From Alphaproteobacteria bacterium (GTDB lineage Bacteria > Pseudomonadota > Alphaproteobacteria > SP197), in contig OZ219917.1 in NCBI GenBank assembly GCA_964291415.2, forward strand, positions 352,001-416,000: 64,000 nucleotides of DNA. The letters run 5' to 3'. Both the position numbers and the translations under genes were made by a program. Shown piece after piece: positions 34,229 through 39,008 of this stretch; within the stretch, counting starts at the first letter, position 1; every line of letters begins with the position of its first letter. The notes below the pieces were generated by a model that searched no databases, was not told the origin of the DNA, and was given only the letters and a program-made list of their open reading frames with translations.

Positions 34229-34468
34229 ATGAAAGTGACAATCAAGATCGACTGTAAGCCAGAGGAAGCCCGTGCATTTCTGGGCATGCCGGACATCCGT
34301 CCCCTGCAGGACGAGTTCATGGCCGGACTGAAGGAGCGCATGAACGAAGCACTGTCCCGGTTCGATCCCGAAGCCATGCTGAAGGAATGGACCGGGGCGT
34401 CCGGTGACGGCATGAACCAGATGATGGACATGTGGCGCCACATGCTGAACCCGGCGAAGCGCGACTGA
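34229..34468 (+). CDS. DUF6489-family small protein
   Basis: MKVTIKIDCKPEEARAFLGMPD..PLQ. Confidence 0.8.
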   Translation: MKVTIKIDCKPEEARAFLGMPDIRPLQDEFMAGLKERMNEALSRFDPEAMLKEWTGASGDGMNQMMDMWRHMLNPAKRD

Positions 34469-34475
34469 CACCCGG

Positions 34476-34491
34476 TGTTTCACGTGAAACA
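34476..34491. promoter_or_regulatory. parS centromere site 1
   Basis: Perfect 16-bp TGTTTCACGTGAAACA immediately before mnmE. Confidence 0.95.
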
Positions 34492-35799
34492 GTGACCATC
34501 TTCGCGTTGGCCACGGCCCCTGGCCGGGCCGCCATCGCCGTGATCCGGGTGTCGGGCCCGGCTGCCGGAGAGGCCGTGAGGCACCTCACCGGCAGGGATT
34601 TGCCTGCCGCCCGGCAGGCCGTCCTGCGCCGCCTTCAGGACAGTCGACCGGGAGAGGCGATCGATCAGTCCCTGGTTCTGTGGTTTCCGGCGCCCGAGAC
34701 GGTCACAGGCGAGGATGTGGCGGAATTCCACGTCCATGGCGGACGCGCGGTGGTGTACGGCGTTCTCGATGCCCTTGCATCCGTGCCCGGCCTGCGGCCC
34801 GCCGAACCGGGAGAATTTACCAGGCGGGCCGTGCTGAACGGCAAGATGGACCTCGTGGAGGCGGAGGCGGTAGCGGATCTCGTCGCCGCGGACACGTCAC
34901 GCCAGCGCCATCAGGCTCTCGATCAGCTCCAGGGGTTGCATTCGGCTCTTTATGACGGGTGGCATCAGCGCCTCGTCGACGCCATGGCGCGCCTCGAGGC
35001 CGTGATCGACTTTCCCGACGAGGAATTGCCGGCGGGACTCCTCGATGACAACCGGGCGGCGGTGACCGCCCTCGAAGGGGAAGTTCGTGCCCACCTCGAT
35101 GACGGACGCCGCGGCGAACGGCTGCGCGAAGGTCTCAGTGTCGTCATTCTCGGGGCACCCAATGTCGGCAAGTCGAGTCTTCTCAACGCTCTCGCCGGAC
35201 ATGACGCGGCCATTGTCTCTGCGGAGGAGGGGACGACACGGGACACGGTCGAGGTGACCATGGACATTGCCGGCTTTGCCGTATCCCTCGTCGACACCGC
35301 AGGGTTGCGAGAGGTTCCGCAAGGCGTCGAGGGAGAAGGGATCCGGCGGGCGCTGAAGAGAGCGGAGACGGCCGACCTGACGCTGCTCGTTGCCGATGCC
35401 AGCCGTTGGGACGAGACCTGGCCCCGCATCGAGTCCCACAGCGACGGGAATGCGCTTGTCGTGGCCGGAAAGGCCGACCTCGCCCGTCCTCCCCCGGGTA
35501 TTCCGGGCCTGTCGGCGAAGACCGGAGAGGGGATCGATCATCTCATCGAGACCATGGCGCAACACTTCCGGCTCGCCTGGCAGGGCGCGGCGCTGGCGCC
35601 GTCGCGGACCCGGCACAGGGCTGCTCTTCTCCAGGTCGCAGACGCCCTGGCGCGCTATCGGAACCTGGATGCAGGCGACGTCACGCTGGCAGCCGAGGAC
35701 CTGCGTCTGGCGGCAACGGCACTGGGACGGCTCACCGGCAGGGTGGACGTGGAGGACCTTCTCGACGTGATCTTCTCGGAGTTCTGCATCGGCAAATGA
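34492..35799 (+). CDS. mnmE: tRNA modification GTPase MnmE
   Basis: TIFALAT, TGEDVAEF, GAPNVGKS, GTTRD, DTAG and C-terminal FCIGK. Start is approximate. Confidence 0.97.
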   Translation: MTIFALATAPGRAAIAVIRVSGPAAGEAVRHLTGRDLPAARQAVLRRLQDSRPGEAIDQSLVLWFPAPETVTGEDVAEFHVHGGRAVVYGVLDALASVPGLRPAEPGEFTRRAVLNGKMDLVEAEAVADLVAADTSRQRHQALDQLQGLHSALYDGWHQRLVDAMARLEAVIDFPDEELPAGLLDDNRAAVTALEGEVRAHLDDGRRGERLREGLSVVILGAPNVGKSSLLNALAGHDAAIVSAEEGTTRDTVEVTMDIAGFAVSLVDTAGLREVPQGVEGEGIRRALKRAETADLTLLVADASRWDETWPRIESHSDGNALVVAGKADLARPPPGIPGLSAKTGEGIDHLIETMAQHFRLAWQGAALAPSRTRHRAALLQVADALARYRNLDAGDVTLAAEDLRLAATALGRLTGRVDVEDLLDVIFSEFCIGK

Positions 35800-35805
35800 G
35801 TGTTT

Positions 35806-35950
35806 GGGACTTATATGCTTGACTATGCAGTCAAGCATCGTTTTGACGGTCCATGGCCTTCGGCCACTTTGCCCCGTCCAGACACCCCAATCCCGGAGGC
35901 CAGAATGTTGCGGGCCGCGTTCAGGTCCGCGTTGTCCATGTAGCCGCAAG
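35806..35950 (-). ncRNA. Candidate omegaRNA/reRNA scaffold overlapping the tnpB 3' end
   Basis: Nested stems GACGG/CCGTC (35845-49 / 35874-78) enclose TGGCC-N3-GGCCA (35854-66). A perfect 10-bp hairpin ATGCTTGACT-N4-AGTCAAGCAT lies at 35815-35838. The position is expected for TnpB guide scaffolds; the 5' boundary is a guess. Confidence 0.5.
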
Positions 35951-37034
35951 TTACACAGAGATAGTTCGATTGGGACAATCTGGACCTGCTGTCCACAGTT
36001 CCACACGATGAACACCGTTGGGACGTGTACCGGGAAGGCACCTTGACGACGCTGGTCTTGTACTCAAGGCATTGTCGCAGGATGCCCCAGCCCGTATCCA
36101 GAATCTTCCTGTTGAGACCGCTCTTCTGCCTGACGTTCCTGCCGGGCTTCTCGACGGTCCCCCCGGCCGACTTCGTCATGTTGTCGATCTTCAGATCCTC
36201 GACACAGACGGTGGAATAGTTGTCGGCAATCCTGCGGCTGATCCTGTGGGACCAGTTTTTGCGGACATTGGCTCTCTTGCGTTCGAGCCTCCGGATCCTC
36301 TGCCGGGTCTTCAGTCTGCGCTTCGCTCCCTTGCGCTGTCCGCTTTCCTTGTTCCTGAGACGGTTGATCCTTCTGTCGATGTCTGCGGTGTCGGACTTGT
36401 GGAGGATGTCTTCGTTGCCTTCCAGATCGACACATGCCACTTGACCGACGTTCATGTCGATGCCGATGGCCGTCCCGTCGTCTTGGCGTTCCGGGACATC
36501 GACCTTGTACGTGACGGTGGCATACCACTTGCCGCAGATTTCCTTGAGAACGGCCTTGCACGGAGCATCTCCAGAATACGGGTTTCCGCCCTTTCTGCGA
36601 AGAACCACAGCGCCGATCCTCGGAACGTGAAGCCTGTTCCCCCTGATCCCGATGTTCTCCGGAATCGTGAAGGAAGGCATCGAACCGTATTTCGACTTGA
36701 AATCCGGCCTCTCGCCATGTCCCCTGAAATAGGCGGCCCATGCGTCCGACTGATACTTGAGAACGTACCGGGTCACATTGAACGCATACTGAGAGAGCCA
36801 GTCGACGTCAGCCCGAAGTTTGGTGAATTCCTTTCCAAGAGAGAAGAAAGACGTCGACGGACTGTCGCCACCGTTCTCGACTGCATTCCTGTAGGCAGCA
36901 TTGTGCCTCGCCAGAATCTCGTTCCACACGAAACGGCAGGCACCCGCCTGGGCGGCGAGCCTTCTTGCAGTCGTCCTGTTGCCGGGGAGGACCCGGTAGA
37001 CGATGTTTCGGTGTGCCAAAACCATGTGGTGCAT
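35823..37034 (-). CDS. tnpB: RNA-guided endonuclease TnpB
   Basis: AGACRFVWN, RuvC-I IGIDMNV, RuvC-II VEDL, zinc finger TSQRCSSCG...CVTCG and Ruv[14 protein letters not shown]. All three acidic catalytic residues are present. Confidence 0.96.
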
Positions 37035-37089
37035 CTACTCCAAAGCGCTCCCGATGTCGATCTGCGTGGTCAAGTACATGGGTCCCAAG

Positions 37090-37105
37090 TGTTTCACGTG
37101 AAACA
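37090..37105. promoter_or_regulatory. parS centromere site 2
   Basis: Perfect TGTTTCACGTGAAACA upstream of mnmG. Its first 5 nt belong to the target-site duplication. Confidence 0.95.
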
Positions 37106-37145
37106 GCGCTTTGACGCACCGAAGCGCCATCACTACATTCCAGGC

Positions 37146-39008
37146 ATGACGCAGACCTTCGTTCACGATGTCATTGTCATTGGCGGCGGGCATGCCGGTA
37201 CCGAGGCGGCCGCGGCCGCGGCGCGATGTGGCGCTGCGACGCTTCTCGTGACCCTGCGCCGTTCGACCATTGGCGCGATGTCGTGCAATCCCGCCATCGG
37301 TGGTCTCGGCAAGGGGCACCTGGTGCGCGAGATCGATGCCCTGGACGGTGTCATGGGCCTGGCCATCGATCGCTCGGGCATCCAGTTCCGTCTGCTCAAC
37401 GCCAGCAAGGGGCCGGCCGTTCGCGGCCCCAGGGCGCAGGCGGACCGGTCTCTCTATGCGCAGGCGGTCAGGGAACTCCTTGAAAACCAACAGGAACTTG
37501 ACATCCTCGAAGGCGAAGCCTCCGACTTGGTTGTGAACCATGCCGGAGAGATTGCCGGTATCAGGCTTGCCGACGGAAGGCTCTGTCGCGCTCGCGCGGT
37601 GATCCTCACCACCGGAACCTTCCTGCGCGGGATGATTCACATCGGCGACGAGCGCTGGCCGGCGGGGCGGATCGATGATGACGCCGCCGTGGCCCTCGCC
37701 GCGACGCTCGAAAGGCACCGCTTTTCCCTTGGAAGGCTGAAGACGGGCACGCCGCCGCGAATCGATGGGCGGACCATCGACCATGCCGCCCTGGAGGTTC
37801 AGCCCGGAGATGATCCGCCGCAGCCGTTCTCGTGGCTGACCGGCGCCATCACCGTGCCGCAGGTGCCCTGTCATGTGACGGCCACCACCAAGGCCACGCA
37901 CGACGTCATTCGCGCCAACCTGGACCGGGCGCCTGTCTATTCCGGCCGCATCGACGGCGCCGGCCCCCGGTATTGCCCGTCCATCGAGGACAAGGTGGTG
38001 CGGTTTGGCGACCGGGAGAGCCACCGGGTCTTTCTGGAGCCCGAGGGGCTCCGGACCGCGACGGTCTACCCGAACGGCATCTCCACGTCGTTGCCGCGCG
38101 ATGTTCAGGAGGCCTTTATCGCCACGATTCCAGGACTTGCCAGGGCGCGCATCCTGCGTCACGGCTATGCCATCGAGTATGACTACGTCGATCCGCGTCA
38201 GCTCGATCACACGCTGCAGACAAGACGGATTCCAGGCTTGTTCCTGGCCGGCCAGATCAACGGCACCACGGGATACGAGGAGGCGGCGGGTCAGGGGCTG
38301 GTCGCCGGAATCAACGCGGCGCGCTGTGCGGGAGGCCTTCCAGGCGTGCGGTTTGACCGGGCAGAAGCCTACCTGGGCGTCATGATCGACGATCTCGTCA
38401 CAAGGGGGACCGCCGAACCCTACCGCATGTTCACGAGCCGGGCGGAGTATCGTCTCGTTCTGAGGGCCGACAATGCCGATTTGCGTCTTACCGCAAGGGG
38501 CCGCGAGGCCGGGTGTGTCGGAGAGACCCGATGGCGCGTCTTCTTGCGACGCCGACAGGAGGTCGGGGCGGCCATGACGCGGGCTTGCGCGCTGCAGGTC
38601 AGTCCAGACGAAGCGCGCGCCGCAGGGTTCGATGTCAATCGGGATGGCCGTCGGCGAAACCTGTTCGACCTCGCGGCTTCGGCGTCCGGGGACGATCGAC
38701 GACTGCTGGCCCTGTGGCCGGAGATTGCGACGTGGCCCGAGCACGCCATGGACCAGGTGAGAATTGCCGGTCGCTACCGGGGTTACCTGGGTCGCATGGA
38801 GGCGGACATTGCCGCCTTCCGCCGAGACGAGGCCCTCGATCTTCCTCCCGGTCTCGACTACGCCCGCATTGGCGGACTGTCTGCCGAGATGCGCGAGACG
38901 ATGTCAGCCGCCCGCCCGGCCACGCTTGGACAGGCAGCACGGCTTCCCGGGGTGACGCCTGCCGCCCTGCAGGCCCTGCTCCGCCACGTCAGGCGGGATG
39001 CGGCGTGA
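37146..39008 (+). CDS. mnmG: tRNA uridine 5-carboxymethylaminomethyl modification enzyme MnmG (GidA)
   Basis: [30 protein letters not shown] and [13 protein letters not shown] motifs. Confidence 0.98.

Follow-up and report, generated by a model that had tools for sequence, protein, structure and literature searches.

TnpB between IS1595-like ends in an alphaproteobacterium, with a predicted guide RNA that extends into the terminal inverted repeat

A tnpB insert between mnmE and parS

A 1281-bp insert carrying a gene for a TnpB-family protein was studied in a 64,000-nt stretch of the genome of an Alphaproteobacteria bacterium (GCA_964291415.2, contig OZ219917.1, forward-strand positions 352,001–416,000; this whole stretch is referred to as the window, and coordinates are those of the window unless another contig is named). 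The order on the plus strand is mnmE, the insert, parS and mnmG, with the insert lying between the mnmE stop codon and parS, and tnpB is the sole long open reading frame (ORF) of the insert. The insert is most likely a non-autonomous derivative of the IS1595 family with ISNwi1-like ends and tnpB as its only gene, and most likely a passenger that would be mobilised in trans by an IS1595 DDE transposase. The joint explanation that we favour, with a probability of roughly 0.6, combines a passenger with IS1595 ends, a guide RNA (omegaRNA) that occupies the right inverted repeat, a guide taken from the flank, a minimal target-adjacent motif (TAM) and retention of the element by TnpB.

The 403-aa product is a TnpB-family RNA-guided nuclease by its domains and by a curated model (NCBIfam guided_TnpB, 225.4 bits, cut-off 100), and guide-dependent cleavage is predicted for it. 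Residues 8–397 align to the solved chains of ISDra2 TnpB (8h1j, 8bf8/8exa) with E of about 3e-21. Comparison of the window protein with six relatives showed the RuvC acidic residues E279, D280, D367 and D370 and the CCCC zinc-finger residues C341, C344, C360 and C363 to be invariant in all seven sequences; the catalytic residues of this alignment are those that we take to be catalytic in TnpB. The Asp of the GIDMN motif is kept in the window protein and missing only in L017, a relative that combines the loss of this catalytic Asp with an N-terminal deletion. The cut-offs of two family-specific models were not reached (IS200_TnpB, 169.6 bits against 425; IS607_TnpB, 93.4 bits against 350). For residues 220–378, the top-scoring solved structure was a 540-aa chain described as "Transposase" (9j09_A, 1.4e-28), which ranked above ISDra2 TnpB.

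Element ends and family assignment

The element is present as a single copy in its own genome. A copy with 97% identity was found at a different locus of a metagenome-assembled genome (MAG) of the same genus, and because the homology between the two stops at 35805/35806 and at about 37076–37086, at the sequences GGGAC... and ...GTCCC, these positions were taken as the element boundary. A repeat search paired 35804–35830 with 37062–37088 (27 nt, 78% complementary), the longest among the 72 repeat pairs of this region. An earlier note on this DNA, made from the sequence alone, had located the tnpB stop codon (35823–35825) within the downstream inverted repeat, and it does lie in the right arm at 35806–35830.

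More distant relatives that carry tnpB only (40–52% amino acid identity) are multi-copy in 9 of 22 other genomes of the genus. Among the first set of 21 related loci, 17 had a duplication matching at a minimum of 6 of 8 positions, and these 17 share one plan: on the tnpB strand, an 8-bp repeat precedes a left end GG(G/C)(G/A)ATT.TAT..., and the right end, ...GATA.AAGTCCC, is followed by the second copy of the 8 bp. The final set consisted of 27 independent insertions with differing flanks, with duplications identical at 8/8 positions in 18, at 7/8 in 6 (the window element included) and at 6/8 in 3. All 27 duplications differ in sequence and have no common motif beyond their A/T richness, position 2 being A or T (W) in 27/27 and position 7 in 25/27, in a genome with 35% A+T. 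The two ends of the TnpB elements are unequal, with 9–23 of 25 positions identical.

The ends resemble those of the ISNwi1 group, for which the ISfinder family table has the consensus ggnnatTAT. An IS200/IS605-type (IS1341 group) identity is ruled out by the 25-nt inverted repeat, the 8-bp duplications of 27 different sequences, the ends shared with IS1595 elements and the IS200_TnpB score below its cut-off. Membership of the IS607 family (serine-recombinase TnpA) is likewise ruled out by the inverted repeat, the target duplication and the IS607_TnpB score below its cut-off. The pertinent passages of a 2026 review describe IS200/IS605 and IS607 elements as having neither inverted repeats nor target duplications (PMC13565253), and A/T-rich 8-bp repeats are reported for the IS1595-family element ISApl4 in a passage of PMC12561309.

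A class-level protein search (E ≤1e-40) gave matches in 7 of 301 genomes, the own genome included, and a search of genome contigs for related loci returned nothing beyond the same MAG copy and one 30% relative. At L143–L148 (five loci outside the genus and one inside it, in G007), no inverted repeat with an 8-bp duplication was found, apart from one low-complexity chance match. A metagenome scan yielded 80 loci, and a clean duplication was present at 4 of them. Contigs that run across the repeat are mosaics, and the absence of a duplication from metagenome contigs was therefore treated as assembly mosaic. In the metagenome contigs L156, L158, L161, L162, L165, L168 and L184, the left flank of one contig is the right flank of another (for example, left flank of L168 and right flank of L162).

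IS1595 transposons as putative partners

A genome-wide scan for inverted repeats with duplications revealed, on contig 2 of the same genome, a 2468-bp element flanked by an A-rich duplication of 8 bp, with an inverted repeat that matches at 24/25 positions and begins GGGAATTATA. Its 321-aa ORF matches DDE_Tnp_IS1595 (2.9e-36), Zn_ribbon_IS1595 and the NCBIfam model transpos_IS1595 (177 bits, cut-off 75). Two further ORFs of this element (138 and 130 aa) are without a Pfam match. IS1595 transposase is present in 18 of 23 genomes of the genus, and 13 complete transposase-bearing elements were delimited there; they are 2.5–3.9 kb long, all have 8-bp A/T-rich duplications, and they contain extra ORFs beside the transposase.

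The consensus end of the transposase-bearing elements reads GGGGATTATAta..., compared with GGGgATTATATac... for the left end of the TnpB elements. The right end of the window element agrees at 15–16 of the first 20 nt with 8 of the 13 partner elements (L092, L093, L096, L122, L127–L130), the element of the own genome among them. The right end of the TnpB elements differs from the transposase-type consensus exactly at positions 4–5, which pair in the pseudoknot described below.

A tblastn search of the IS1595 transposase loci L092–L137 gave no match to tnpB, and no element with both genes was present among the loci searched. The absence of tnpB from the transposase loci, together with the absence of a transposase from the TnpB elements, indicates that the latter are passenger-only and presumably moved in trans. 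Mobilisation by that transposase is putative, with the 27 distinct insertion sites and the filled and empty alleles in one sequencing run as indirect signs. Co-occurrence of the two genes was uninformative, transposase being present in 8 of 10 TnpB-positive genomes of the genus and in 10 of 13 TnpB-negative ones.

Two IS1595-family transposase genes, 56% identical, stand back to back on contig 2 of the own genome (48470–51995; L091, L092, L112). The same contig contains a 3123-bp copy of a related TnpB element (84501–87624; L038:503–3625), with the duplication ATCGACAA. This copy was considered as an autonomous element and rejected, being a tnpB split by an IS110-family insertion; the insert has a 374-aa ORF, assigned to the IS110 family by the look of the protein only.

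A predicted omegaRNA within the inverted repeat

A perfect 10-bp hairpin had been described in the earlier note as confined to the downstream end. This was borne out: the hairpin (35815–35824/35829–35838, with a 4-nt loop) has no counterpart at the left end, where the partner strand is missing. It is not followed by a run of T and is not terminator-like. Folding of a 155-nt single sequence gave −58.3 kcal/mol (z −1.92), and 6 of 200 shuffled sequences folded equally well. Because the single fold barely beats the shuffles, the structure claim rests on comparative evidence. Positions 35872–35950 are the best-conserved DNA in comparison with distant copies (81–85% identity, versus about 66% elsewhere).

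RNAalifold on the raw MAFFT alignment gave 10 pairs only. Per-sequence folds of the last 40–55 nt had in common an outer helix (AUCG...CGAU) and an inner hairpin, followed by a 9-nt tail with AGUCCC at its end. A 29-pair structure was written by hand from the per-sequence folds, and then tested on 21 sequences and on 35 sequences, the latter including 10 metagenome members. Its parts are the terminal stem, a long-range helix (H2) and a stem-loop within the ORF (H1), whose loop (GGGACU, or GGGAUU in the window) pairs with the final six bases of the element to form a pseudoknot. The fraction of cells paired was 88.6% in the 21 sequences, versus 28–43% when the pairing partners were slid, and 88.7% in the 35 sequences, versus 32–45%. 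Pairs changed on both sides numbered 13 in either set (slid, 4–7 and 3–9, respectively), and the covariation score was 0.221 and 0.232 (slid, at most 0.075 in both sets), a value reached by 0 of 500 shuffles in both; the structure was derived from the tested sequences, so that the slid controls favour it somewhat, and many rows of the alignment are kin.

H1 was 100% paired, with a change from GC to CG in 10 of the 35 sequences, and H2 was 98.3% paired, with compensatory changes at 3 pairs. The pseudoknot helix was 90.9% paired in the 35 sequences, and 3 of its 6 pairs showed changes on both sides (4 sequences have G-C in place of A-U, and 2 have A-U in place of U-A). The outer terminal helix is located at inverted-repeat positions 10–13, where the window has AUGC/GCAU in place of AUCG/CGAU, and the terminal stem takes up positions 10–21 of the right inverted repeat. 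Two pairs of the outer terminal helix had changed on both sides, in 5 and in 8 sequences, at alignment columns of the inverted repeat (159/194 and 160/193, respectively). The earlier proposal of an RNA scaffold that covers the tnpB 3' end and continues into the inverted repeat is thus upheld in the 35 relatives. Because the terminal stem and the pseudoknot strand lie in the right inverted repeat, one short sequence would serve as transposase-binding end, ORF tail and RNA scaffold, a triple use that had also been proposed and that the covariation in the repeat supports.

An Rfam scan of 35000–37500 with E up to 10 gave two chance-level matches only, and no Rfam family corresponding to this RNA. 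One 229-nt contig from an RNA library (metatranscriptome) spans 35801–36019 of a copy with about 98% identity (5 differences), and stops 15 nt past the right end. Its size and limits fit an omegaRNA, which we regard as a weak hint.

Empty allele and predicted guide

In the nine closest genomes of the genus, the mnmE stop codon is directly followed by NNGTTTCACGTGAAACA, corresponding to the empty allele, and an insert at the mnmE/parS position was present in none of 21 other genomes of the genus. Contigs from public runs join 35797 to 37087 (X3 and X6) and 35800 to 37090 (X2); in run X1, uncovered parts of the stretch carry no meaning. The empty allele rebuilt in the earlier note, with mnmE joined to parS, is therefore found as such in nine genomes of the same genus and in contigs from three public runs. 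These joints indicate that the insertion duplicated AAACACTC (sense strand) and left parS intact. Run X2 contained both filled junctions (depth 15–20) and the empty junction (depth 12.6). Several strains are present in this run, and the two alleles may therefore reflect strain polymorphism rather than excision.

The guide start given in the earlier note, on the minus strand of 35786–35805, follows from the element boundary and is likewise predicted here. The 12-, 16- and 20-mers of the predicted guide are unique in the genome, and the guide is probably 15–20 nt long. Since the mnmE stop codon is joined to parS in the empty allele, the TAM position corresponds to the ...CACGTG of parS. The TAM had been predicted to fall in the parS core, and CACGTG does precede the target in the empty allele, but only its last one or two bases (TG) are conserved throughout the family, and the parS core is not. 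Self-protection of the filled allele agrees with the comparison, in that the right end of the element ends CC in 35/35 sequences, where the empty site has G.

The exact 16-mer, which we take to be parS by name and consensus, occurs in only 2 copies in the 4.44-Mb genome. On either strand, it presents TG with an A-rich 8-mer after it, a combination seldom met in this GC-rich genome. Copies of a different subfamily adjoin the other parS, upstream of mnmE, in three genomes of the genus (G001, G016, G005). After their right end come AAACA(G/T/-)... and the start of mnmE; the position relative to CACGTG is the same. The left ends of these copies were not recovered (contig ends or a remnant copy), and the copies may derive from one ancestral event. 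The half-sites of parS (CACGTG then AAACA) would thus be recurrent landing sites in a GC-rich genome.

A one-sided G beside the target duplication

The base 5' of the left duplication (position −1) is G in 25 of the 27 TnpB-element insertions, the exceptions being L139 (T) and L160 (C), and position −2 is T in 15, G in 6, C in 5 and A in 1. At the mirror position on the right side of the same elements, G was present in 10/27. The flanks of the 13 transposase-bearing elements had G in 9/26, with G on neither side in 6 of the 13, and the genome background of G is 0.325. The enrichment was significant in comparison with the transposase-bearing flanks (Fisher p 1.1e-5), with the right side (3.4e-5) and with the background (binomial, 1e-10). 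The first target base is A in 19/27, and its mirror position is T in only 8/27. Left flanks without a verifiable duplication had G in 7 of 9 (scored by eye, with one ambiguous case excluded).

The G or TG at the left flank points to a minimal TAM, which would be imposed by retention or selection and not by the transposase. The earlier note had asked how a transposase that forms target-site duplications could come by a TAM. A candidate answer is a minimal motif, G/TG, whose enrichment is confined to the copies with TnpB.

The own genome also contains four miniatures (about 176–300 bp) with the same ends and without tnpB, located on contig 2 at 344480–344778 and on contig 4 near 560976, 883416 and 1169275. 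They retain the right end together with a segment similar to the RuvC-III/omegaRNA 5' region; they may supply only a guide RNA, with TnpB acting on them in trans.

Proposed mechanism and alternatives

We propose that the IS1595 DDE transposase of larger elements with the same ends, one of which is present in this genome, would move the element in trans, inserting it into A/T-rich 8-mers with duplication of 8 bp. The omegaRNA would be produced from the tnpB strand over the last ~200 nt of the element, with AGUCCC pairing with the loop of the ORF hairpin (GGGAUU/GGGACU) as a pseudoknot. The transcript would continue 15–20 nt into the flank, so that the guide would start with the duplicated 8 bp, followed by the mnmE 3' end. 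In an empty allele, the target would be preceded by the ...CACGTG of parS, with G/TG acting as a minimal TAM. In the filled site, the full target would be preceded by the ...CCC of the element, and the copy on the TAM side would match the guide over 7–8 nt only; with TAM and full target separated in this way, the element would not cut itself. TnpB would cut element-free alleles, and recombination with the filled copy would restore or spread the element, so that insertions with a left G/TG would persist.

A more far-reaching version of this proposal concerns the origin of the arrangement. A bacterial TnpB lineage may have adapted to a DDE transposon of the IS1595 family, with its variable 8-bp landing sites, by remodelling of the right repeat into the terminal stem and pseudoknot strand of the omegaRNA, by starting its guide with the duplicated target and by shrinkage of the TAM to G (TG preferred), with TAM compatibility achieved by survivorship and not by the transposase. 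We hold this version tentatively, at slightly less than even odds. With the TAM shrunk to G, about one-third of random insertions would be homing-competent and persist, and the protein would be a nearly TAM-free miniature RNA-guided enzyme.

Several observations weigh against the favoured explanation. The guide RNA, cleavage and the TAM are all predictions from sequence, and a TAM of one or two bases would be unusually short for TnpB. A G at −1 is lacking in 2/27 insertions (L139 and L160) and in 2/9 of the left-only flanks. All four miniatures without tnpB also have G at −1 (by eye, with a clean duplication in only 2), and the bias may therefore belong to the transposase that moves this subgroup. 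Pseudoknot pairs 5 and 6 are each unpaired in 8/35 sequences, and both pseudoknot strands are conserved for other reasons too, one in Gly codons and one in the transposase end. The RNA-library evidence is one contig with a depth of 4; contigs cannot prove ends or transcription, and DNA may be in the library. The transposases of the 13 control elements are only 50–67% identical to one another, and their link to the mobility of the TnpB elements is putative. Finally, the 97% identical MAG copy (L009/L036) has no duplication, which may be due to chimeric repeat assembly, as in the metagenome contigs.

The same anatomy would be retained if the left G/TG were a target preference of the trans-acting transposase, exerted on unequal ends, with the real TAM being different or elsewhere. 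The miniatures, which have G at −1 without tnpB, fit such a preference, and ends that differ as much as those of the TnpB elements (9–23/25) could permit an oriented complex. However, the transposase-bearing elements are unenriched (9/26, with 6/13 having G on neither side), and so is the right side of the TnpB elements themselves (10/27), while the target preferences of DDE transposases are usually symmetric. The miniatures, having retained the right end and a portion of the RNA region, could also be served by TnpB acting in trans. We consider a transposase preference unlikely, although it is a serious contender. A Fanzor-like geometry, with the left duplication as the TAM or part of it, the right copy in the scaffold and the guide beginning 8 nt further out (CAUUUGCCGAUGC...), is improbable. 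A precedent is known from Fanzor1/2, whose transposons have inverted repeats and target duplications (passages of PMC10711439 and PMC13565253), and the A/T bias of the duplications (position 2 W in 27/27, position 7 in 25/27) would suit it. With 27 different duplications and no motif beyond A/T richness, the duplication would be neither a fixed part of the scaffold nor a specific TAM. Such a geometry also leaves the G at −1 unexplained, and the RNA-library contig extends 15 nt beyond the right end and just 7 nt beyond the duplication, which is a weak point against it.

The right-end hairpin and repeat could alternatively serve transposase binding or transcription termination only, with TnpB as a decaying passenger without a working guide RNA. 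A marginal single fold (z −1.92), the lack of an Rfam match and the occurrence of degraded relatives (L017, and the copy split by an IS110-family insertion) are what such decay would look like. Compensatory changes are nevertheless found in four helices, the long-range H2 and the pseudoknot among them, the hairpin lacks the T run of a terminator, the window ORF is intact with its conserved acidic and Cys columns, and DNA identity to distant copies peaks (81–85%) over 35872–35950; we therefore judge decay very improbable. The view that this is an ordinary IS200/IS605 (IS1341-type) element mobilised by a Y1 TnpA, with a flanking repeat that is due to chance or is a repeated cleavage motif, deserves hardly any credence. 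The Pfam names OrfB_IS605 and HTH_OrfB_IS605 suggest it, but it is already refuted by the inverted repeats, the 8-bp duplications of 27 different sequences and the ends shared with IS1595, and the IS200_TnpB score of 169.6 bits is below the cut-off of 425.

Relation to known systems

The element is of a kind already known in two respects, namely DDE-associated TnpB and guide RNAs containing an inverted repeat, as in Fanzors. TnpB proteins associated with DDE transposases and lying between inverted terminal repeats are described in passages of Altae-Tran et al. 2023 (PMC10691335), as are solo TnpBs with the same ends that are presumed to be moved in trans. The likeness extends to the distance of the tnpB 3' end from the transposon end, which is ≤250 bp in those passages. 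The families involved differ, in that the main text of PMC10691335 names IS630, and passages of the review add ISL2 and IS1031 (PMC13565253). IS1595 is not named in the main text of PMC10691335, and its supplement may list an IS1595 branch. The passages of the two papers on bacterial DDE-associated TnpB elements contain no RNA structure, TAM or target-site analysis. No link of TnpB to IS1595 was found in the literature searched, where co-mentions were judged incidental, mostly from titles and abstracts.

The reRNAs of Fanzor1/Fanzor2*, in passages of Yoon et al. 2023 (PMC10711439), resemble the predicted omegaRNA in having the transposase-binding inverted repeat in the scaffold and in running past the element end. 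In Fanzors, however, both the scaffold and the TAM include the target duplication, which is usually fixed, and Fanzor1 is without a pseudoknot (passages of PMC13565253). In the window element, by contrast, a variable duplication is most likely the start of the guide, the predicted pseudoknot takes in the outermost bases of the repeat, and the host is bacterial. The Fanzor arrangement fits poorly because the duplications vary.

The TnpB of ISDra2 (IS200/IS605) is homologous to the window protein over its full length, its omegaRNA overlaps the 3' end of the ORF, and its guide is derived from the flank. The ISDra2 omegaRNA has a pseudoknot next to the guide. In elements of this type, the TAM is the 4–5-nt target of TnpA (TTGAT for ISDra2), and inverted repeats and a duplication are absent (passages of PMC13565253), whereas the window element has DDE-type ends and a TAM-like signal of 1–2 nt. 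With IS1595 insertion sequences that carry passenger genes, it shares A/T-rich 8-bp duplications and ends starting GGnnATTAT, and it differs from them in having no transposase.

Three aspects appear to be new in the literature searched: the IS1595 partnership, a covariation-backed pseudoknot in the inverted repeat, and a TnpB-specific one-sided G/TG signal beside a variable duplication. Prokaryotic TnpBs on DDE transposons are described as rare in passages of the 2026 review, which suggests rigid TAM recognition as a limit (PMC13565253). The element offers a testable bacterial case for this conflict between TAM and DDE transposition, with its shared end and scaffold sequence, a predicted guide that includes the variable duplication, and a TAM-like signal of 1–2 bases. 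It would have borrowed the ends of a cut-and-paste-type family, and suggests a way for TnpB to live with transposons whose landing sites vary. Should G/TG be confirmed in a TAM assay, practical interest would attach to the 403-aa protein, a miniature nuclease with almost no target constraint, and the survivorship signal would be population-level evidence that TnpB promotes the retention of a non-IS605 transposon.

Feature coordinates and further observations

The positions of the element, its predicted RNA and the neighbouring genes are listed in Table 1, together with the consensus ends.

Table 1. Features of the TnpB element and its surroundings in the window, with consensus ends of related elements.
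Feature	Position	Strand	Description and basis
Whole element	35806..37086 (1281 bp)	-	Limits from 97% identical copy elsewhere and inverted-repeat/duplication scan
tnpB (P0001), 403 aa	37034..35823	-	Pfam HTH_OrfB_IS605, OrfB_IS605, Cas12f1-like_TNB; NCBIfam guided_TnpB
Right-end terminal inverted repeat	35806..35830	.	Contains tnpB stop, 3' strand of terminal RNA stem and pseudoknot strand (predicted RNA); repeat search and end comparison
Left-end terminal inverted repeat	37062..37086	.	19/25 identical to right end, nearer the transposase-bearing IS1595 consensus; repeat search and end comparison
Right-end copy of 8-bp target duplication	35798..35805	.	Sense AAACACTC; the predicted guide would open with these 8 nt; flank comparison
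Left-end copy of target duplication	37087..37094	.	Sense AAACACTT; 7/8 identical to right copy; flank comparison
Predicted omegaRNA scaffold	35806..36019	-	Conserved structure; 5' limit tentative, from RNA-library contig only (weak hint)
Stem-loop H1 (predicted), inside tnpB ORF	35884..35900	-	7-nt loop; pseudoknot 5' strand GGGAUU at 35889-35894; 100% paired
Long-range helix H2 (predicted)	35845..35878	-	35874-35878 with 35845-35849, enclosing hairpin 35853-35867; covariation; hairpin from single fold
Terminal hairpin of predicted omegaRNA	35815..35838	-	10 bp, 4-nt loop; 3' strand in inverted repeat; fold; aligns with outer terminal helix of relatives
Pseudoknot 3' strand (predicted)	35806..35811	-	AGUCCC, last 6 nt of element; pairs with 35889-35894; covariation, 35 sequences
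Predicted guide template	35786..35805	-	5'-AAACACUCAUUUGCCGAUGC; antisense to last mnmE codons and stop; from element boundary
Candidate TAM position	37095..37100	-	CACGTG, parS centre; only last two bases (TG, sense) fit family motif; empty allele and flank counts
mnmE	34432..35799	+	Stop TGA 35797-35799; Pfam TrmE_N, MnmE_helical, MMR_HSR1
mnmG/gidA	37146..39008	+	Pfam GIDA 2.2e-162
parS 16-mer	37090..37105	.	Intact despite duplication; exact copy
Second parS, upstream of mnmE	34476..34491	.	Exact copy
Consensus, end of transposase-bearing elements			GGGGATTATAtaC.TgACT
Consensus, left end of TnpB elements			GGGgATTATATactTgACT
Consensus, right end of TnpB elements			GGGACTTATATCGaTgACT (reverse complement)

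Two further observations were made among the relatives of the element. In the copy L011 (G004, contig 2), the first 13 nt of the left end are present in tandem duplicate. The copies L141 (G012) and L020 (G004) share the same site and flanks in two species, one being a complete element of 1334 bp and the other a remnant of 375 bp with an internal deletion, which suggests an old orthologous insertion that is decaying in place.

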